This document shows positions 32,573 to 44,279 of a stretch of 64,000 bases of DNA, piece by piece. The stretch spans positions 2,474 through 66,473 of the forward strand of contig DDEX01000035.1 in the NCBI GenBank assembly GCA_002336845.1, in the 5' to 3' direction. The notes below the pieces were generated by a model. That model was not told where the DNA came from. It did not search any database and saw only the letters and a list, made by a program, of their open reading frames with translations. How positions within the stretch are numbered: position 1 is the first letter of the stretch; the number at the start of each line of letters is the position of its first letter. The position numbers and the translations under genes were made by a program. This stretch comes from Rhodobacteraceae bacterium UBA1943 (GTDB taxonomy: Bacteria; Pseudomonadota; Alphaproteobacteria; Rhodobacterales; Rhodobacteraceae).

Positions 32573-35500
32573 ATGGCGCTTTCGGTTGTGGTGCTGTGGC
32601 TGGCAGTCGTGCTGGGTGCTGCCCCTCTCTCGGCGCAGACGGTCAATACCTATACCACGCAAACTTCTTTCGACAATGCGCTGCCCAACATCACGCTGAT
32701 CGGCACGCTTGAGAATTTCTCGGGCGTTGGAACCAACTACAGAATGAGCACGAATGCGGCCAGCCCCGACGTGTGGAATGGCTTCACGCTTTATGCCAAA
32801 CCCCCATCTGGCAACGGGTCTTCGTTCGGGCCTTCGGGCTATTGTCCCAGGCTGAATGCGACCCCTTGGCCGCAAACGCCCACATGGTGCATCGGATATA
32901 ACAGCCAGGCCCCGAACCGTCCCGGCATCACCGCATCGGTTTCCAGCGCGGGTGGTGCGAACGGCTCCATTCTGTTCCGGTTCTCGCAGCCGGTCTATGC
33001 GTTCTATTTCACATTCGTGGACTGGAATGACCTAAGCCAGCGTTCGGCTTTCCGCTTTACGCTGAGCAATGGCGTCGTGCGCACGGTGACCGGGCCGACG
33101 AACCCGTCGAACAACCCGCCAGAGTTCTTTGCCGCCATGCTGGACAAGACCTCGCGCGAAGAGGGCATCTATATCACTCAGGTCGAATGGTATGGGCTGG
33201 ATACGACCGGCGAACTGGTTGGTATCTGGAATGTCGGCACCTATCGCACGGTGTCTGACATGCAGATCAAGAAAACCTATGGTGCCGCGGTTCTGCGACC
33301 GGACGGCAGCTATGATCTGCCGATCAAGCTGACAATGACCAACAACGGTAACCTGAACATCCGCAACATGCAGATTTCGGATGCCGTGGGTGCGGCAAGC
33401 AACTTTGGCTCTGCCTTCACCAGCATCGTATCGGGGCCGACCATTACGCTGCATGACGACGGACTGCCGACATTCTCGGTCGCCCCGACGCTGAATCCAG
33501 CGTTCAACGGCACGGCGGCGAACAGCAACCTGTTCAACGGGACAACCGGCCTGTTGGGCACCGAGGATTCGGTGGATGTCGATTTCACGGTCAGGCTGAC
33601 GGCCGAGGCGGCAACATTGTCGCCTACTTTCGGAAATACGGTCACCGCCTCTGCGCAGGACGCCTATTACCCGGTGACGCCGGCGCTGACCCGCACCGAC
33701 CGCTCAACCCCGACACTGACGGCGGCGGCCCCGGCGCTGACGGTGACCAAAACGGCGAATACGGAGGGCCTGTCATCGCCGCCGGTGCCGGGCAATGTGA
33801 TCACCTATACCTATCAGTTGCGCAACAGTGGCAACCTGAACCTGACCAATCTTTCGGTCACGGATGTCCATAGCGGGACCGGCGCGCTTAGCGCCATTTC
33901 CCCGGCCACGGTTGCAGGCCCGCTGGCCCCCGGTGCGACGACGACCTTTACCGCCAGCTATGTGCTGACCCAGGCTGATATCGACACTGGTTCGGCGTTG
34001 ACCAACACGGCGACGGGCCAAGCAACGGACGCCTATGGCCATGCAGTAACGGGGCAGGGCAATGCTGCGGTTCCGCTGACGCGCAACCCTGCCATTGTCA
34101 TCGACAAATCGACGACCGTGACCCTGATTACAGCCGTTGGGCAGGTGATCCCTTATACGATCGTGGTGACCAACAGCGGCAATGTGACATTGCAGAACGT
34201 GGTTGTCAGCGATCCCCTGACCGGACTTAACCAGACCATCGCCAGTTTTGCGCCGGGGGCCACGCAGGTCTATCACACCACGCATACGGTGACGCAGGCC
34301 GATTTCGACAGCGGCAATGTGCACAACATCGCGTCGGTCATGGCACAGGCAGCGGGCGGCGGCACGGTCACGGCCAGCGATTCTGCGGCCGTGCCCCCCG
34401 ATGCCCAGCCAAGTGCCACTCTGGTCAAGTCGGCGCCTACTGGCACGCCAACGCTGGGTCAGACACTGACCTACAACATCACGCTGACCAATACCGGCAA
34501 TGTGACAATGACTGGGGCCACGATCACCGATACCAAGATCACCCCGTCGTCTCTGGCCTGCCCGGGTATTGCGCCCGGCGCGACCTGCGTGCTGACGGGA
34601 ACCTATGTCGTTACCCAGGCCGATGTGGATGCTGGTGAGGTTGTGAATACCGCAACCGCAACCGCGCCTTTGCTGCCCGCGCCGCTGCACAGCACGGTTG
34701 TCACGCCCATCACGCGCACCCCGGCGCTGACTGTGAACAAGGCGGCTGGTGTCGCGTCGTTCAGCACGGTCGGCGCGGTGATCCCCTATACGATCAACGT
34801 AACCAACACCGGCAATGTGACGCTGACCGCAATTGCCGTGACCGACCCTCTGACCGGGCTGAACCAGACGGTGGCCAGCCTTGCGCCGGGTGCCTCGCAG
34901 AATGTGGCGACCAGCTACACCGTGACCCAGGCTGATCTGGATGCCGGGCAGGTTGCCAATACCGCCACGGCCACCGGTCAGGCGCCGGGTGGCGCCTCGG
35001 TCAGCGGCAATGGCAGCGCCACAGTTCCAGCCAGCCAGGCGCCCGCTTTGGCGGTGACCAAGACCGCATCGCTTCCTAGTTATGCGGCGGTTGGTGCGGT
35101 GATCCCCTATACGATCACCGTGACCAACACCGGCAATGTGACGCTGGCAGCGATTGGCGTGACCGATCCGCTGACCGGGCTGAGCCAGGCGGTGGCCAGC
35201 CTTGCGCCCGGCGCCTCGCAAACCCTGACGACCAGCTATACCGTGACCCAGGCCGATCTGGATGCCGGGCAGGTTGCCAATACTGCTACGGCAACGGGCC
35301 TTACGCCCGGCGGTGCGCCGGTAAGTGGCAGCGCGACGGCAAATGTTCCTGCCGCTCCGGCACCCGGCCTGTCGCTGGACAAGGTCGCAACGGTGCCCAG
35401 CTATTCCACCGTCGGCAGCGCGATTCCTTTTACCATCACGGTAACCAACACCGGCAACGTGACACTGACCTCTGTTGTGGTGACCGACCCGCTGACCGGG

Positions 35501-38500: not shown

Positions 38501-39901
38501 CCGCGCGGCCCACAGGTATCGGATGACGGCAGTGTCACCGTGCCGGTGGCCGCGAACCCGCAGTTGACGGTGACCAAGAATGCCGGTGAGGTCAGCTTTA
38601 TCACCGCAGGCGACGTGATCACCTATACGATTACGGTGACCAACAGCGGCAATGTCACCCTGACCAATGTATCGGTGACTGACCCGCTGACCGGCCTGAA
38701 CCAGAGCCTTGGCACCATGGTGCCCGGTGATACGCAGACAGTGACAACCACCTACACGATCACCGCGACAGATGTGGAAACCGGGCATGTCGATAACACG
38801 GCCACTGCAACCGGCACGCCGCCTGCCGGTGCGGCCTCTGTCTCGGCAGATGGAACCGAAACGGTCCCGAACGACCTGACGCCACGCGAAGCCATCGGGA
38901 TCGAGAAGGTGGCGGGTATCGGCCATGTCATGGTTGGCCAGGTCGTGCCCTATACGATCACCGTGACCAACCGGTCGCAATTCACCACCGTAACGGTCGA
39001 TGTGGTCGATACGATGCCGCCCGGCTTTGTCTATCAGGCCGGTTCAGGACGGGTGGGCGCAACGGCGCAAGAGCCTGAGGTGAATGGCAGCCGCTATCGG
39101 TTTACCGATGTGGCGGTTCCGCCGCAGGGTAGCGTGGCCATCTCGATCTCGGCACTGGTAACGGGCTCGGCCCAGCCGGGCGAGAATACCAACACCGCCC
39201 GTGCTTTTGATCCGAACACCGGCGAGCCGCTGTCAACGACTGCTTCGGCGACGGTGATGGTTGATGCCGATCCGGTCTTTGACTGCGGTACGGTCATCGG
39301 CCGGGTGTTCGACGATGCCAACCAGGACGGCTATATGAACGGCCCGTCCTCGGCAGAGGCGAAGGACGGCGAGGTGGGCCTGCCTGCGGTGCGTCTGGTC
39401 ACGGTGAACGGCACGATCATCACGACCGATCGCTTCGGGCGCTATCACATTCCTTGCGCCGAACTGCCGCGCGACATCGGAACCAACTTCATCCTCAAGC
39501 TGGATGAGCGCACTTTGCCCACGGGCTATCGGCTGACGACCGAAAACCCGCGCGTGGTGCGCCTGACGGCAGGCAAGATGACGCGGATGAACTTTGGCGC
39601 GACATTGGCGCCTGTGGTTCGTATCGACCTGTCGGACCGGGCCTTCCTGACCGGCAAGCAGGCGAAAGAGCCGCGCCCCGAACTGGCCGAAGGGTTGCGT
39701 CAGATGGTGCGGCAGATCGCCAACACGCCTTCGGTCCTGCAACTGAACTACCTGCTGGGGCCAGATGGCGAAAAGCTGGCCAAGGCGCGGATGCGTGTGA
39801 TCGAGGACATGGTGCGAGAGCTGTGGCGCGGCACCGGTGCCTACAAGTTGAACGTCGAACAGGTGATCGAGCGGGGCAATGACCACGCCGGAGGTGAGTG
39901 A
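32573..39901 (+). CDS. Giant secreted/surface repeat protein (~2,440 aa): signal peptide, unique N-domain, ~17 DUF11 (TIGR01451-type) Ig-like repeats, SdrD-B/Cna-B-like domain, ~100-aa C-terminal tail
   Basis: Uninterrupted 7.5-kb frame. Signal peptide ..MALSVVVLWLAVVLGAAPLSA|QT; start is ambiguous (ATG 32573, GTG 32558, or further upstream to 32381). Recurrent V(I/T)xYTITVTNTGNVTL..DPLTGL.QT.A.LAPGASQ..T.YTVTQADLDAG.V.NTA.A.G. SdrD-like GRVFDDANQDGY..GLPAVRLV..TTDRFGRYHI. Confidence 0.9.
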   Translation: MALSVVVLWLAVVLGAAPLSAQTVNTYTTQTSFDNALPNITLIGTLENFSGVGTNYRMSTNAASPDVWNGFTLYAKPPSGNGSSFGPSGYCPRLNATPWPQTPTWCIGYNSQAPNRPGITASVSSAGGANGSILFRFSQPVYAFYFTFVDWNDLSQRSAFRFTLSNGVVRTVTGPTNPSNNPPEFFAAMLDKTSREEGIYITQVEWYGLDTTGELVGIWNVGTYRTVSDMQIKKTYGAAVLRPDGSYDLPIKLTMTNNGNLNIRNMQISDAVGAASNFGSAFTSIVSGPTITLHDDGLPTFSVAPTLNPAFNGTAANSNLFNGTTGLLGTEDSVDVDFTVRLTAEAATLSPTFGNTVTASAQDAYYPVTPALTRTDRSTPTLTAAAPALTVTKTANTEGLSSPPVPGNVITYTYQLRNSGNLNLTNLSVTDVHSGTGALSAISPATVAGPLAPGATTTFTASYVLTQADIDTGSALTNTATGQATDAYGHAVTGQGNAAVPLTRNPAIVIDKSTTVTLITAVGQVIPYTIVVTNSGNVTLQNVVVSDPLTGLNQTIASFAPGATQVYHTTHTVTQADFDSGNVHNIASVMAQAAGGGTVTASDSAAVPPDAQPSATLVKSAPTGTPTLGQTLTYNITLTNTGNVTMTGATITDTKITPSSLACPGIAPGATCVLTGTYVVTQADVDAGEVVNTATATAPLLPAPLHSTVVTPITRTPALTVNKAAGVASFSTVGAVIPYTINVTNTGNVTLTAIAVTDPLTGLNQTVASLAPGASQNVATSYTVTQADLDAGQVANTATATGQAPGGASVSGNGSATVPASQAPALAVTKTASLPSYAAVGAVIPYTITVTNTGNVTLAAIGVTDPLTGLSQAVASLAPGASQTLTTSYTVTQADLDAGQVANTATATGLTPGGAPVSGSATANVPAAPAPGLSLDKVATVPSYSTVGSAIPFTITVTNTGNVTLTSVVVTDPLTGLNQTVASLAPGASQTLTTSHTVTQADLDAGQVVNTASASGTPPTGGPVTANGSVTVPAAPAPALSLSKVSSVPSYAAVGDVISYTITVTNTGNVTLTAISVADPLTGLNQTVASLSPGASQTLTTSYTVTQADLDAGQVANTATTSGTPPTGGPVTASGSETVPAVLSPALTVQKTTTTTIMTAAGQVIPYTITVTNTGNVTLGNVVVTDPLTGMSQTIVSLAPAASQVFNTSYTVQQADIDLGYLVNTATATGNVPGGGTVTGSDGAAVPPVINPGLSVVKSNPTGTVALGQTLTYTVTATNTGNITLHSVTVSDAMLTPASTSCAVLAPTASCVLTGSYVVTQADVDAGQIINTGSATSNETPTPTSDTVTTPVPQVLDMAVTKTADVTSFDAVGDVITYTVTVSNPGTVTLTNVQVTDPLTGLNQTVASLAPGASQALTTSYTVTQADLDAGSVGNTASATGTPAGGGGPLTESASASVPADVTPGLTLTKVANVSTVNHAGDAVTYTITVTNTGNVTLSDVSLTDPLTSLTSDIGTLTPGQSNVVTITYYVSQAQIDAGGVTNTASATGTPPSGPAITATGTATVTASENPELTVTKSQPSGTVALGQTLTYTVTARNSGNTTLSNVVVSDAILTPGSITCATLLPNAICTLTGTYVVTQADVDNGQIVNTGSAVSTQTPTPTTSTVTTPVPQNPGLSITKVATSPNFSAVGQTISYTITVANTGTVTLNAIAVNDPLTGLSQTVATLAPGASQALTTSHIVTQADLDAGFITNVASATGTPPSGQPITETATSTVPALVTPGVTVTKVAGVATVSANGDVIPYTITVTNTGNVTLINLVVSDPLTGLSQTIATLAPGASQPVITSYTVKQADLDAGLVANVASVSGTTSGGTPVRGSDNATVTATPAPALTVTKVADVASIGAVGDVVSYTITVTNSGNVTLSNVAVSDPLTGFSQTVATLAAGADQSFTTSYTVTQADLDAGSVVNTALATGTPPRGPQVSDDGSVTVPVAANPQLTVTKNAGEVSFITAGDVITYTITVTNSGNVTLTNVSVTDPLTGLNQSLGTMVPGDTQTVTTTYTITATDVETGHVDNTATATGTPPAGAASVSADGTETVPNDLTPREAIGIEKVAGIGHVMVGQVVPYTITVTNRSQFTTVTVDVVDTMPPGFVYQAGSGRVGATAQEPEVNGSRYRFTDVAVPPQGSVAISISALVTGSAQPGENTNTARAFDPNTGEPLSTTASATVMVDADPVFDCGTVIGRVFDDANQDGYMNGPSSAEAKDGEVGLPAVRLVTVNGTIITTDRFGRYHIPCAELPRDIGTNFILKLDERTLPTGYRLTTENPRVVRLTAGKMTRMNFGATLAPVVRIDLSDRAFLTGKQAKEPRPELAEGLRQMVRQIANTPSVLQLNYLLGPDGEKLAKARMRVIEDMVRELWRGTGAYKLNVEQVIERGNDHAGGE
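33730..38880 (+). repeat. Tandem array of 16 coding repeats, period ~310-330 bp (~107 aa)
   Basis: The codons for (T/Q/S/K)QAD(L/V/I/F)D recur at about 33.96, 34.29, 34.61, 34.92, 35.24, 35.57, 35.89, 36.21, 36.53, 36.84, 37.16, 37.49, 37.80, 38.12, 38.44 and 38.76 kb. Repeats 4-7 and 10 share long near-identical DNA stretches. Confidence 0.9.
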
Positions 39902-42900
39902 TGGGGCGGGCAATCATCGACATGAAGAACGCCACATATTCGCGCGCCCGCCTGGCGGGCCTGTTGGGAACTGCGGCCCTGCTGGCCGGTCTGCCGGTGA
40001 TGGCGGTGGCCCAGGCTGCTGGCGGCACCGAAGGTTGCGCCCTGATCGACGGCAAGATCCCGCCCGGTTGCGCGCGGCCAGAGGCCGGAACCGTGGTGCG
40101 GATGCCTGCTGGCGCCAACACCACCGACACCAAGCCGACCGGCGCGCTTGGCCCATATGGCTTTGCCATCACGATTGATGCCGCTCCGCCCGAGGCCACG
40201 GACCGCGCCCGTCTGGCTGGCGCAGATCAGGCACAGGACGATGGTCGCCGGGTGGACCGCATACTGGCCGAAGCCGGCGTGCAGGTTACTTATGATGGGC
40301 TGGGCGTGCGCCCCAGGCTGGCGATTTCCACCGGCGATATGAAGTCCTCTTACACGGCGGGCAGCGCGGTAGCGTTTCGCGCCTCGACCAACTATCCGGC
40401 CTGGATCGCGAAATCCGAAATCCGCCTGATCGAACGGGATGACCCGACGAAGGTTGTGGCGGTCATTCCGGTGGCCGCAAACGGCACGGCAGACTGGACG
40501 ATGCCCGCCGAAAGCGTGCTAAAAGACGGCAATCTGTTTTACAGCCTGCGCGTCTATGACAATGCGGGCCGTTACGACGAAACCGTCCGCCTGCCCATAA
40601 GCCGCAGCGCGGAAAAGTTTCCGCAGGAACCGCTGGATGGCCCCGTGATCGCTCCCGGCGAGGGTGAGGACATGACAGCCCGCCGCTCAATTCCGGTGCG
40701 CGGTGGTGCCGTGACCGTGACGGGCAATACCGGCGGGCGCGGTTCGGTGCAGGTGATGGGTGAGGACACGGTGGCCGACCCGACGGGCACTTTCGTCATC
40801 CAGCGTATCCTGCCGCCCGGCGCGCATGACATCCGGGTTGGGCTGGGCCGTGACAGCATCACCCGCCATGTCGAAATTCCGCGCCGTGAATGGTTCTACG
40901 TCGGCATCGCCGATCTGACCTGGGGCAAGGAAAAGGGCGAGGGCAGCTATACCCTGGGGCGTCTTGCCGGCTATGCCAAGGGCAATACGGCGGGCGGTTA
41001 TACCATCACAGCCTCGGTCGATACCGGCGAAGGCGAGATTGAGGACATCCTGCGCGATCTGGATGCCAAGAACACCCGCCGGGTGCTGGACCGCATCAAG
41101 TCCGAAGATGTCTATCCAACCTTTGGCGACGATTCGACCAGCCTTGAGGATGCCCCCACCTCTGGCAAGCTGTACCTCAAGGTGCAAAAGGACAAGACCG
41201 CCCTGACTTGGGGTGATTTCAAGGCGGCGGACGGCACTTCGCCCCTGATCCGCAGCGACCGTACGCTTTATGGCCTTCTGCTGACGCATGAATCCATGGC
41301 CCAGACCACCCATGGCGATGCCAAGCTGAAATACTCGGCCTATGGCGCCTCCCCCGACCGGTTGGTGCAACGCGACGTAATGCGCGGAACCGGCGGGTCT
41401 GCCTATTTCCTCAAGCGGCAGGACATTCTGTACGGGACCGAGACGATCTATGTTCAGTGGCGCGATCCGGTCAGCGGCAATGTCGTGCGCAGCCAGCGCC
41501 TGACGGCGGGCGATGACTATGAGATCGACTATTATCAGGGCGTGATCATCCTCAAGTCGCCCCTGTCCGCAGCGGGTGGCGGCGGGCTGATGGGCGACCG
41601 TCCTTTGGGCGACTATGACGTCGATCTGGTCGCGCAATACGAATATGTGCCCACCACGGGCAATGTGGATGGCTATGCCGCCGGGGGCCGCGTCGAAGGC
41701 TGGGTGACCGACAGTCTGCGCCTTGGCGCAAGTGCTGCCAAGGATACGACAGGCGTGGCCGACACGACCTCGGTTGGTGCCGATGTGCTTTGGCGCAAGA
41801 GTGATGCGACCTGGCTTTCCTTTGACGTCGCGCAAAGCGAAGGGCCGGGTTATGACACCAGCTTTTCCCTGAATGGCGGTCTGGATATTGATGACGACCC
41901 CTCTGCCGGGGTGAAGGGTCAGCCTGCCAATGCGATCCGTCTGGAAGGGCGGGCCGATCTTGAGGAACTGACCGGCGGCGCGATGGCGGGTGAGGTTTCA
42001 GCCTATTTCGACCGCAAGGAAGCTGGCTTCGTTTCGGCAGATTACGACATTGACACCACCCAGACCTCTTGGGGTCTCGCGGGCAAGCTGGATCTGAACA
42101 GCCGCACCCAGTTGCGTCTGGCCTATGACAACTTCCGTGACGAAGACGGCAAGAAGCGGCAGGACGGCAAGGTTGAGCTGGCCTACGACCTGACCGATCA
42201 ATGGACGGTCGAAACCGGTATTGCGACCACCGACCGCAAGGGCGACCCCTTTGCCGAGCCGGATGAGCTGGGCCAGCGGACGGATGTCGGCGCACGGCTG
42301 ACCTGGACGCGCGACGACGATCTGAAGGCTTGGGTCTTCGGTCTGGCAACGGTCAGCCGTTCGGGCGGTCTGGAACAGAACAACCGCCTTGGCTTTGGCA
42401 TCGCCGGTCGCCTGACCGACCGGCTGTCGGCCGAAGGAGAGGTTTCGGGCGGCAGCCTTGGCCCCGCCGGGCGCGCTCTGCTGCGGTGGGACAACAATGC
42501 GGGAACCAGCTATCGGTTTGGCTACACGCTTGATCCGATGCGCCGCTTTGAAACCGACCGGATCGGCACGGATGGCGGCAAGTGGGTGATTGGCGCCGAA
42601 AGCCGGGTAAATGACCATATCACCTATCGGGCCGAGAACAGCTACGATCTTTTCGGCAACGAACGCGCGCTGACCACGGCCTATGGCGTCCGCTATACGC
42701 CCAGCGATACATGGGCCTATGACGGCACGTTGGAATTCGGCCAGACCGACGATCCTGAAGGCGGCGGCACCTATACCCGTCGCGCCATAGGGGCAGGGGT
42801 ACGCTATTCCAACGGCGACCTGGCCGAAGCGGGGCTGCGCGCCGAGTATCGTAATGACGAATCCACCGACGGCGCGCGCAACCGCGACAACTGGCTGGTG

Positions 42901-43518
42901 AAGGGATACTGGCGGCAGAAGACCTCGGATGACTGGCGGTTGCTGTTCGATCTGGCCGCGCTGGTTTCGGAAAGTGATCAATCCTCGCTGCGCGATGGCC
43001 GCTATATCGAGGCCAATCTGGGCTGGGCCTATCGCCCGGTTGCCAATGACCGGCTGAACGCGCTGTTCCGCTATACCTATCTTGAGGATCTGCCGGGGCA
43101 GGACCAGGTCAGCATCGACGGCTCGCTGGACGGGCCGCGCCAGCGCAGCCACATCCTGTCGATTGACGTGGACTACGACCTGAACCGCTATTGGACGCTG
43201 GGCGGGAAGTACGGCTATCGGTTCAGCAATGTGACCGACCGCACCACCAATGTGTTCACCAAGAATACTGCCGATCTGGCCATTCTGCGCCTTGACTATC
43301 ATGTGACCCACAACTGGGATCTGACGCTGGATACCCGCCTCTCGCATTTCTACGAGACGGACGTGACCGAGACTGGCGCGATGGCTGCGGCCTATCGCCA
43401 TTTCGGCAACAACCTCAAGGTCGGGGTCGGCTATCAGTTCGGCAATGTGTCCGACGATCTGCGTCTGATCGACGGCCGCAAGGAAGGGGTGTTCCTGAAC
43501 ATCGTCGGCAAGTTCTGA
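39901..43518 (+). CDS. Large outer-membrane protein (1,205 aa): signal peptide, ~550-aa soluble N-terminal region, ~650-aa C-terminal beta-barrel; translationally coupled to the giant repeat protein
   Basis: Its ATG overlaps the upstream TGA (GGAGGTGAGTGATGG, SD GGAGG). Signal ..LLGTAALLAGLPVMAVAQA. The C-terminal half has amphipathic strand patterning rich in G/D/Y/R/T. The terminal beta-signal is GVFLNIVGKF, ending in Phe. Confidence 0.8.
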   Translation: MGRAIIDMKNATYSRARLAGLLGTAALLAGLPVMAVAQAAGGTEGCALIDGKIPPGCARPEAGTVVRMPAGANTTDTKPTGALGPYGFAITIDAAPPEATDRARLAGADQAQDDGRRVDRILAEAGVQVTYDGLGVRPRLAISTGDMKSSYTAGSAVAFRASTNYPAWIAKSEIRLIERDDPTKVVAVIPVAANGTADWTMPAESVLKDGNLFYSLRVYDNAGRYDETVRLPISRSAEKFPQEPLDGPVIAPGEGEDMTARRSIPVRGGAVTVTGNTGGRGSVQVMGEDTVADPTGTFVIQRILPPGAHDIRVGLGRDSITRHVEIPRREWFYVGIADLTWGKEKGEGSYTLGRLAGYAKGNTAGGYTITASVDTGEGEIEDILRDLDAKNTRRVLDRIKSEDVYPTFGDDSTSLEDAPTSGKLYLKVQKDKTALTWGDFKAADGTSPLIRSDRTLYGLLLTHESMAQTTHGDAKLKYSAYGASPDRLVQRDVMRGTGGSAYFLKRQDILYGTETIYVQWRDPVSGNVVRSQRLTAGDDYEIDYYQGVIILKSPLSAAGGGGLMGDRPLGDYDVDLVAQYEYVPTTGNVDGYAAGGRVEGWVTDSLRLGASAAKDTTGVADTTSVGADVLWRKSDATWLSFDVAQSEGPGYDTSFSLNGGLDIDDDPSAGVKGQPANAIRLEGRADLEELTGGAMAGEVSAYFDRKEAGFVSADYDIDTTQTSWGLAGKLDLNSRTQLRLAYDNFRDEDGKKRQDGKVELAYDLTDQWTVETGIATTDRKGDPFAEPDELGQRTDVGARLTWTRDDDLKAWVFGLATVSRSGGLEQNNRLGFGIAGRLTDRLSAEGEVSGGSLGPAGRALLRWDNNAGTSYRFGYTLDPMRRFETDRIGTDGGKWVIGAESRVNDHITYRAENSYDLFGNERALTTAYGVRYTPSDTWAYDGTLEFGQTDDPEGGGTYTRRAIGAGVRYSNGDLAEAGLRAEYRNDESTDGARNRDNWLVKGYWRQKTSDDWRLLFDLAALVSESDQSSLRDGRYIEANLGWAYRPVANDRLNALFRYTYLEDLPGQDQVSIDGSLDGPRQRSHILSIDVDYDLNRYWTLGGKYGYRFSNVTDRTTNVFTKNTADLAILRLDYHVTHNWDLTLDTRLSHFYETDVTETGAMAAAYRHFGNNLKVGVGYQFGNVSDDLRLIDGRKEGVFLNIVGKF

Positions 43519-44230
43519 TCAAGCCGTCAGAGAGAACCGGGCGATGAATATCCTGTAGCCGACAGGGATAAACCGCACAGGTTTTCCAGAGGCCACTTCA
43601 ACAGCCCGCGCTGGGCGTTCAGATGCGCACTTCGCGGCGGTGCCACCATTAATGAGATGGTCCGTCCTGCACCTAAGCATGGCATTAGGGGAATGTGCAT
43701 CGAACGGAAAGAAAGGATGTGGACCAAACGCAGACCTGAGACAGTGGCTTTCGGCATCGATACCGGCGAGGGGATTCAATATCTTGCCACTGAACGCCGA
43801 GGGGGCCGGTTCCTGCGGGCCAGGCCACGCGCGATACATTGATGAGCCGTTTCGAAGCGGCGCCGAACGTGGTGATCGGCATGGCAGCCCGCTCCGGGTA
43901 CAGGGGCAGGCACGGGGGCTGGTTTCGATGGCCATGAAGCCCGGATCATACCCGCGCGCTTCGTTTGGTTCTGCGTTAACCCCAGCAAGGCCGAAACGTC
44001 GATGCCGCAGCAATCGCCAAAGCCATGACGGGCCGAGCATGCACTTGGTCGGGCAGCGAAGCCCGGAGCAACCCGACATTCAATCCCTGCACCGCAACTG
44101 GGGCGGCCACATACCGCATGCGCAGGGAAGTCCCGGCTCGGGTCAATTGCCGAAAGATCGCAACGGGATACGTCTTTCCATGCTCTCGCTGGCGTGCAGG
44201 TCCGGTTGCCTCATCGGTTGAACGGATAAG

Positions 44231-44264
44231 AAAGCCGCCCCGGCCAGTGCATCGGGGCGGCTTT
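44231..44264 (-). terminator. Rho-independent terminator of the minus-strand sugar ABC operon
   Basis: AAAGCCGCCCCG-(10 nt loop)-CGGGGCGGCTTT. On the minus strand the stem is followed by TTTCTTATCC. Lies 16 nt past the binding-protein stop. Confidence 0.75.
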
Positions 44265-44279
44265 GCAGGGCTGATCCGA

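Follow-up and report, generated by a model that had tools for sequence, protein, structure and literature searches.

We examined a pair of overlapping genes at positions 32573-43518 of a 64,000-nucleotide (nt) stretch of DNA from Rhodobacteraceae bacterium UBA1943 (GenBank assembly GCA_002336845.1, contig DDEX01000035.1, positions 2,474 to 66,473, forward strand). The whole stretch is called the window, and coordinates refer to it. Gene 1 encodes a long repeat protein, and gene 2 an outer-membrane protein with a predicted giant β-barrel. An earlier reading of the DNA letters and their open reading frames (ORFs), here called the original prediction, had proposed that the two form an undescribed module in which gene 2 is a dedicated outer-membrane translocator and/or anchor for gene 1.

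Features of the gene pair

The pair contains the following features, with lengths in amino acids (aa) and AlphaFold2 confidence given as the predicted local distance difference test (pLDDT).

32573..39901, + strand: gene 1 (ATG 32573, TGA 39899-39901), a 2,442-aa Sec-type CLIPPER/DUF11 repeat protein and putative fibrillar stalk
32573..32635, + strand: gene 1 signal peptide, MALSVVVLWLAVVLGAAPLSA followed by QT, judged by eye from the translation
32636..33721, + strand: N-terminal non-repeat region of gene 1, about 360 aa, a candidate distal tip that is not conserved among partners
33722..38869, + strand: 16 tandem CLIPPER/CLIPPER_2 repeats of about 108 aa each (self-search, Tandem Repeats Finder, Pfam)
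38873..39898, + strand: conserved C-terminal module of gene 1 (C-module), its last 342 aa and the constant companion of gene 2 (AlphaFold2 pLDDT 91.6)
38894..39262, + strand: C-module domain 1, a CLIPPER/DUF11-type immunoglobulin (Ig) domain (Pfam DUF11, E = 5.7e-10)
39284..39607, + strand: C-module domain 2, an SdrD_B/CnaB-like β-sandwich, the most conserved stretch, with the invariant Cys pair C138/C195 (module numbering)
39614..39874, + strand: C-module domain 3, a small β-α-β-α-β domain (AlphaFold2 secondary structure)
39890..39903, + strand: Shine-Dalgarno sequence and one-base TGA/ATG overlap, with GGAGG (39890-39894) inside the end of gene 1
39901..43518, + strand: gene 2, a 1,205-aa outer-membrane protein with a predicted giant β-barrel (AlphaFold2 model) and no curated family
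39901..40011, + strand: gene 2 signal peptide (…LLAGLPVMAVA followed by QAAGG), judged by eye from the translation
40012..40239, + strand: conserved N-terminal element of mature gene 2, predicted disordered (pLDDT below 50)
40240..40881, + strand: two or three predicted β-sandwich (Ig-like) domains, mature residues 77-290 of the model (~215 aa), with a weak Big_13 signal
40888..43515, + strand: predicted β-barrel region, comprising two 15-residue strands (mature 293-325), an inserted domain and 34 consecutive long strands (mature 535-1167)
40999..41601, + strand: inserted domain of ~200 aa, mature 330-530, with short strands and helices (362-383 at low confidence)
43486..43515, + strand: C-terminal β-signal GVFLNIVGKF with terminal Phe, from the translation

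An identical gene 1 sequence is present in public data as a 2,442-aa protein, close to the ~2,440 aa originally given, and its N-terminus reads as the Sec signal that had been proposed; an alternative in-frame GTG start at 32558 would add a short charged n-region (MSALR). Self-search placed 16 full ~108-aa repeats at residues 384-2099 and one further repeat inside the C-module. The Pfam models DUF7507/CLIPPER_2 (PF24346) and DUF11/CLIPPER (PF01345) matched 16 and 14 stretches (1297.7 and 266 bits, respectively), and the NCBIfam model TIGR01451 matched 17 (409 bits). The tandem domains exceed the curated cut-offs, and gene 1 taken alone is an ordinary CLIPPER/DUF11 repeat protein. Such domains build the stalks of fibrillar adhesins, in which stabilizing isopeptide bonds are possible, and the intramolecular bond is missing in some DUF11 domains (PMC12617251). 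At the DNA level, the central four repeats form a 321-bp tandem array (34767-36153, ~4 copies, 75-78% matches by Tandem Repeats Finder). Recombination could alter the copy number of this array, and short-read assemblies may collapse it.

Gene 1 had been described as free of the usual export and anchor signatures, and our searches agree: the GGxGxD motif of RTX proteins and the LPxTG motif are absent from its sequence, and Pfam returned no autotransporter, type IX secretion system (T9SS) C-terminal or other sorting domain. Its first ~360 aa had zero Pfam matches at E ≤ 1 or E ≤ 0.1, and similarity to this region was found in only one of 72 syntenic partners. All cysteines of gene 1 are closely paired (91/106, 663/672, 1302/1311, 1621/1630 and 2238/2295), and those of gene 2 form one such pair, which bears out the pairing noted earlier for both proteins. 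The predicted junction is also present. The gene 1 stop (39899-39901) shares base 39901 with the gene 2 ATG (39901-39903), which lies six bases past GGAGG; the junction letters are GGAGG(39890-39894)TGAGTGATGG, and the end of gene 1 reads GGAGGTGAGTGATGG. Likewise, gene 2's own signal peptide and its terminal GVFLNIVGKF can be seen in the 1,205-aa translation.

Conserved pairing of gene 2 with the C-module

Co-occurrence and synteny in other genomes had been put forward as a check on the module, and the pair passes it well beyond its own order. We scanned at one genome per species, which gave 248 matching genomes; 80 loci from Rhodobacterales and Hyphomicrobiales were kept, and 73 of these had usable upstream DNA. 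In 72 of these 73 informative loci, a C-module is encoded immediately upstream of the gene 2 homologue on the same strand, with 37-60% identity across the 72. The stop-to-start distance ranges from −17 to +90 nt, with a 4-nt overlap in 27 loci, a count that is approximate because our start-choice rule favors short distances. The upstream proteins themselves span ~550 to >3,300 aa. Since the C-module is shared by 72 of 73 loci and the N-terminal region is matched in one, the conserved partner of gene 2 is, as judged from these alignments, the C-module rather than the DUF11 repeats, and the repeats and N-terminus vary freely. Clustering of the flanking ORFs revealed no third conserved gene; the widest family was a generic ATP-binding cassette (ABC) ATPase, found at 9 loci.

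Two side observations concern the layout of these loci. At one locus (L033), a C-module was found downstream, on the other strand. Two distinct gene 2 homologues (L020 and L021) lie within one Phyllobacteriaceae metagenome-assembled genome (MAG; JANMMM01), and one genome may hold more than one copy of the module.

The two parts also occur as one polypeptide. Single-chain fusions of 2,134-6,889 aa make up at least 15 among the 147 best-matching new representatives and are arranged as signal peptide, repeats, full-length C-module, zero to three OmpA domains and a gene-2-like part that starts at about profile position 50-110, that is, without the gene 2 signal peptide. Two of the fusions have database names: a Deferrisoma protein (RefSeq 'SdrD B-like domain-containing protein') and a protein of a Pseudomonadota MAG. 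OmpA domains (PF00691) lie just N-terminal of the gene-2-like part in 22 of the 147 representatives, and in several fusions one to three of them stand between the C-module and the gene-2-like part. In Gammaproteobacteria, OmpA-barrel proteins of ~1,700 aa, annotated 'OmpA family' or 'MotB', are common (e.g., Microbulbifer, Thiohalomonas). In the two genomes examined from these genera, a CLIPPER/SdrD_B protein of 3,864 or 4,124 aa is encoded directly upstream and ends in a C-module with 40-41% identity to that of the window.

Gene fusion, together with adjacency kept across classes, is strong evidence that both products work together physically. On the evidence of gene neighborhoods and fusions, the two products are shown to be dedicated, obligate partners, and the adjacency of genes 1 and 2 is not chance. 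The dedication of gene 2 to gene 1 in the original prediction is thereby upheld by synteny and natural fusions, whereas its role as translocator or anchor for gene 1 is a step that we infer, as are the surface exposure of gene 1 and any translocation by gene 2 beyond anchoring.

Domains of the C-module

An alignment of 40 C-modules shows a strongly conserved core and an invariant Cys pair. Domain 1 superposes on the CLIPPER crystal structure 9ifr (Foldseek TM-score on the target, TMt, 0.74). For domain 2, homologues carry PF17210 (SdrD_B), and Foldseek gives pilin-type matches. Domain 3 has a weak resemblance to the OmpA domains of relatives (hhalign, 55% probability over 35 columns) and no OmpA match (PF00691) in Pfam; its predicted structure is possibly a degenerate OmpA-like fold. 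Sequence searches of the PDB with the C-module, and with the gene 2 profile, gave nothing at E ≤ 1.

A giant barrel predicted for gene 2

We modeled mature gene 2 with AlphaFold2, using 30 homologues, and assigned strands with DSSP (pLDDT 77.3; predicted TM-score, pTM, 0.73). The protein had been described as ~550 aa of soluble domains followed by ~650 aa of barrel. The model divides it differently, into ~76 disordered residues, ~215 residues of β-sandwich and long strands from mature residue 293 onward. By parity counted from the C-terminal strand, the strands starting at 535 and 293 both begin on the periplasmic side of the model; the simplest arrangement is therefore a 36-strand barrel with the ~200-aa domain inserted on the periplasmic side. 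Gene 2 would thus form one barrel with 34 strands as a minimum and 36 as the simplest count, and the inserted domain is a candidate plug or periplasmic module. On the outer face, the predicted loops are short (4-16 aa in most cases).

Mean-field direct-coupling analysis of 443 sequences (effective number, Meff, ~319; gap-imputed run) recovered hairpins between neighboring strands from ~555 to 1075 (scores 5-12; background 2.2 ± 1.1), which supports an up-and-down meander of the gene 2 strands as far as covariation can indicate. Positions F1168, N1163, F1161 and G1159 at the C-terminus are near-invariant among homologues. Of the hallmarks of an outer-membrane barrel, gene 2 shows a signal-peptide-like N-terminus, a predicted strand meander and a conserved terminal Phe, and the coupling scores were too weak to recover closure into a barrel.

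The first 76 mature residues are modeled at low confidence, and several of their columns are almost invariant. This element (40012-40239) holds the gene 2 cysteines (46/57), the motif NAGTVV.MP.G.NTE and a GFSISID-type strand, with near-invariant columns in the homologue alignment. In general form it is a Cys pair, 'N-[TS]-E', 10-20 aa and then a hydrophobic strand (GFSISID or FTFWG.D, for example). It recurs in other family members (P0192, P0197, P0220 and others): gammaproteobacterial OmpA-barrel proteins begin with it, and fusions carry it after the C-module and ahead of the OmpA or barrel part. Possible roles are as a docking peptide, a lumen segment or a processing site.

Foldseek searches of the PDB with the gene 2 model returned solely outer-membrane barrels, at low TM-scores on the query (TMq 0.13-0.20): TonB-dependent transporters (top), LptD, MtrB, FimD and Deinococcus SlpA, the last with the longest alignments (TMq 0.19-0.20). 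This is a generic barrel resemblance of the predicted fold, with scores too low for family assignment.

Family tests of gene 2

Searched whole, gene 2 matched no Pfam or NCBIfam family at E ≤ 0.01. Searched as halves at E ≤ 1, it gave no POTRA, plug, usher, LptD or autotransporter match and only sub-threshold OMP_b-brl and Big_13 signals in Pfam. The absence of POTRA, plug and usher domains noted originally was thus confirmed at both levels, and gene 2 also falls outside the TonB-dependent receptor, LptD and usher families, any of which had been named as grounds for abandoning the proposal.

Individual candidates were rejected as follows. A TonB-dependent receptor would carry a plug (PF07715) and a 22-strand barrel (PF00593), neither of which was matched (Foldseek TMq 0.15-0.16). 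For a TpsB/TpsA pair, Pfam and NCBIfam found no POTRA, Omp85/ShlB barrel or TPS domain (PF05860) in either protein. Gene 2 lacks a match to the classical autotransporter barrel (PF03797), and its model has at least 34 strands versus 12. An inverse autotransporter of the intimin/invasin type was set aside on the lack of a PF11924 match and on the opposite polarity of fused relatives. A fimbrial usher had no match to its plugged barrel (PF00577) or its PapC N- and C-terminal domains (FimD, TMq 0.20), and LptD had no match to its OstA/LptD N-terminal or LptD C-terminal domains (TMq 0.13-0.14).

A word-indexed search gave at least 2,010 homologues of gene 2, and a profile search of a clustered library found 4,212 family representatives at 50% clustering (E ≤ 0.001). 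Public names of homologues include 'TonB-dependent receptor', 'transporter', 'outer membrane autotransporter barrel', 'flagellar motor protein MotB', 'YfaP (DUF2135)' and 'OmpA family protein'. Domain searches on the window's gene 2 protein alone gave no plug, autotransporter-barrel or other backing for such names. A superfamily of 38- and 40-strand barrels, whose families 002 and 003 offer a comparison for gene 2, has been predicted from sequence (Solan et al., 2021; PMC8346858). The pair had been called undescribed, and we found no Pfam or NCBIfam model for it; our literature searches likewise turned up no account of the pair, of a partner-signal role for the C-module or of what the barrel family does.

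A proposed display module and its alternatives

We consider it fairly probable that the pair is the split form of a widespread, undescribed outer-membrane display module, in which the barrel anchors and conducts the gene 1 stalk. Both proteins would be exported by Sec, as their N-termini suggest, and gene 2 would be inserted into the outer membrane by the β-barrel assembly machinery (BAM) through its C-terminal aromatic β-signal, forming the very large barrel predicted above. Since the periplasm is where OmpA C-terminal-like domains bind peptidoglycan, the segment between C-module and barrel should be periplasmic in relatives and, by homology, so should the N-terminal domains of gene 2. The β-sandwich domains would accordingly face the periplasm, by analogy with relatives that carry OmpA domains N-terminal of them. 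Gene 1 would be a stalk of ~16 CLIPPER Ig domains bearing a variable N-terminal tip, with the C-module as its foot; this foot would dock on gene 2 at the periplasmic mouth of the barrel or within it. The stalk may then thread the wide lumen and place the variable tip outside the cell. A barrel this wide (34 strands or more) and with such short outer loops cannot stay open, and something must therefore fill its lumen; gene 2 would serve as both conduit and anchor, with the partner helping to fill the otherwise open lumen. In other lineages the same parts would be joined in one polypeptide, or the barrel protein would carry OmpA domains that bind peptidoglycan and tie the assembly to the cell wall. 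Surface adhesins usually show this combination of a constrained foot with a tip and a repeat number that vary.

Several observations weigh against this proposal. The place where gene 1 ends up is itself something that we infer, and the OmpA-bearing relatives also fit a purely periplasmic scaffold. There is no evident energy source to move ~2,100 residues across the outer membrane, and Ig domains, if folded and isopeptide-bonded in the periplasm, would need to pass the barrel in folded form. Coevolution (Meff ~319) gave no partner for the last strand and hence no barrel-closing pair. The sole informative exception to the synteny (L040, a Rhizobiaceae MAG) has a gene 2 homologue with no C-module gene upstream; the partner may be lost or absent there, or the MAG contig may be chimeric. 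At that locus, a response regulator and genes of type III secretion system (T3SS) type (Secretin_N, YscD-like, Y4YQ_C) precede the homologue (L040:1533-4478).

The periplasmic alternative holds that gene 2 links the outer membrane to the cell wall, as Deinococcus SlpA or OmpA do, and that gene 1 stays in the periplasm through its C-module, as a structural layer. OmpA domains do adjoin the C-module in fusions and are N-terminal in the gammaproteobacterial partners, SlpA chains gave the longest Foldseek alignments (TMq 0.19-0.20), the Cys pairs suit an oxidizing periplasm as much as the outside, and no energy source for secretion would need explaining. However, surface adhesins typically combine a hypervariable tip with stalk domains like the sixteen isopeptide-type ones here (an estimated ~60 nm when extended), a membrane anchor would need far fewer strands than the 34 or more predicted, and partners ranging from ~550 to >3,300 aa are ill-suited to a space of fixed width; we judge a scaffold of this kind unlikely. 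Alternatively, gene 1 could cross by a general route encoded elsewhere, with gene 2 just holding the C-module at the surface and the lumen serving another purpose or plugged by gene 2 itself. The partnership data cannot tell anchoring from translocation, and the inserted ~200-aa domain could be such a plug. Yet the neighborhoods of the pair share no conserved secretion genes across ~70 loci, and in the fusions a covalent link ties the passenger to domains that face the periplasm, so that the chain must cross within the same protein. This makes anchoring alone improbable in our view. That gene 2 is an ordinary transporter (a TonB-dependent receptor, porin or 'transporter') with a meaningless neighbor seems scarcely credible: some public records name homologues so and TonB-dependent transporters head the Foldseek matches, but there is no Plug, TonB_dep_Rec or other family match, TM-scores on the query are just 0.13-0.20, and the 72/73 synteny, cross-class conservation and gene fusions rule out chance adjacency.

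If the display module is as we propose, it might constitute an unrecognized display route, in which a non-Omp85, single-chain barrel of 34-40 strands threads and holds an Ig chain, perhaps prefolded and isopeptide-locked, with the C-module as recognition and retention signal, an optional OmpA bolt to the cell wall, and split and fused forms distributed across several classes and phyla. We put this broader proposal at slightly less than an even chance.

Comparison with known systems

In its logic, the module comes closest, by analogy, to type V secretion: the fused forms resemble classical autotransporters in polarity, and the split form resembles two-partner secretion. The original prediction had likened the pair to a split inverse autotransporter, a comparison that the fused relatives overturn, as their passenger is N-terminal and their barrel C-terminal. 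Like a classical autotransporter (type Va), these relatives combine a Sec-exported N-terminal passenger with a C-terminal BAM-type barrel in the same order and without accessory genes. They differ in the predicted size of the barrel (at least 34 vs. 12 strands, no PF03797 match) and in the folded Ig/OmpA domains between passenger and barrel, and in the window passenger and barrel are separate polypeptides. With TpsA/TpsB (type Vb), the pair shares its layout as a two-gene operon in which a large exoprotein exported by Sec is matched with an outer-membrane barrel dedicated to it. In contrast, POTRA domains and an Omp85/ShlB barrel are missing from gene 2, the N-terminal TPS domain is missing from gene 1, whose recognition module is at the C-terminus, and the cargo gene comes first.

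In architecture, the module recalls plug-and-barrel complexes, the wide SprA translocon and SlpA-type connectors. LptD/LptE and MtrB/MtrA(C) also consist of a large barrel (26 strands) whose lumen is filled by a separate partner encoded nearby, and LptD and MtrB are among the Foldseek matches. They have no sequence relationship to the pair, their partners are a lipoprotein or a decaheme cytochrome rather than an Ig-repeat stalk, and they function in lipopolysaccharide insertion and electron transfer. The T9SS protein SprA/Sov is a single-chain barrel of ~36 strands, wide enough for folded cargo, with a lumen controlled by partners. However, SprA serves many cargoes and is motor-dependent, gene 2 has no SprA match, the neighborhood showed no T9SS genes, and Pfam found no T9SS C-terminal sorting domain in gene 1. 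To our knowledge, SprA and the T9SS are confined to the Bacteroidota/FCB (Fibrobacterota-Chlorobiota-Bacteroidota) group. Deinococcus SlpA and OmpM-type connectors bind the cell wall through N-terminal domains, which a spacer connects to a very large barrel (30 strands) at the C-terminus, much as in the OmpA-Ig-barrel relatives; SlpA differs in its S-layer homology (SLH) domain and coiled coil, in forming trimers and in having no dedicated Ig-repeat partner, and the window's gene 2 has neither an OmpA nor an SLH domain. Finally, gene 1 shares its signal peptide, variable tip and CLIPPER stalk with CLIPPER/DUF11 fibrillar adhesins such as Acinetobacter silvestris B9T28_05395 (PDB 9ifr), for which an 'OmpA-like anchoring domain' is given without a barrel partner or export route. 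The CLIPPER survey reports such a domain in one Gram-negative adhesin and, besides the T9SS of Bacteroidota, names no way in which these proteins cross the outer membrane or are anchored (PMC12617251).

Judged from sequence, the module appears to be new as a system and as a family, with a proposed function; barrel-mediated display as a general idea is already familiar. CLIPPER/DUF11 stalk proteins are common in Pseudomonadota, and the pair offers a testable two-gene candidate for their export or anchoring, with no other conserved partner. The barrel family is large (4,212 representatives at 50% identity) and has no Pfam or NCBIfam model, and its members are often misnamed TonB-dependent receptor, MotB or transporter. 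If ~36 or more strands is true, the gene 2 barrel would equal or exceed SprA, the largest solved single-chain barrel. The natural split and fused forms provide non-covalent and covalent versions of one assembly for comparison, and the C-module is an obvious handle for surface-display design.

Flanking DNA

Two further features border the pair.

31818..32572, no strand: upstream non-coding stretch, 755 bp, lower GC (0.57-0.59), without a credible ORF
43519..44279, no strand: downstream non-coding stretch, 761 bp, with a GC-rich hairpin at its far end beside a convergent sugar-binding-protein gene

The pair had been described as bracketed by two ~750-bp stretches of lower GC and as lying between sugar operons. 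The first part holds, with a GC content of 0.57-0.60 in both stretches against 0.62-0.67 within genes. The second holds on one side: directly downstream is a further sugar ABC operon on the opposite strand, but the immediate upstream neighbors are a truncated glucose-methanol-choline (GMC) oxidoreductase ORF, an HbpS-like gene and a TetR gene, and only then sugar ABC genes. The stretch at 31818-32572 presumably holds the promoter or regulatory region of the pair, and no match to the sigma-70 consensus was found in it.

The GC-rich hairpin (AAAGCCGCCCCGG…CGGGGCGGCTTT) lies at 44233-44265, at the 3' end of the convergent sugar-binding-protein gene and 715 bp past the gene 2 stop. It includes a terminator-like site (44233-44245) and may terminate transcription from both directions. 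Upstream, the truncated ORF (31158-31817, − strand; 219 aa) starts with the flavin adenine dinucleotide (FAD) motif of GMC oxidoreductases, holds just the last ~45 residues of the GMC C-terminal domain and continues into an unrelated tail. It is far below enzyme length and is probably a remnant with an internal deletion.

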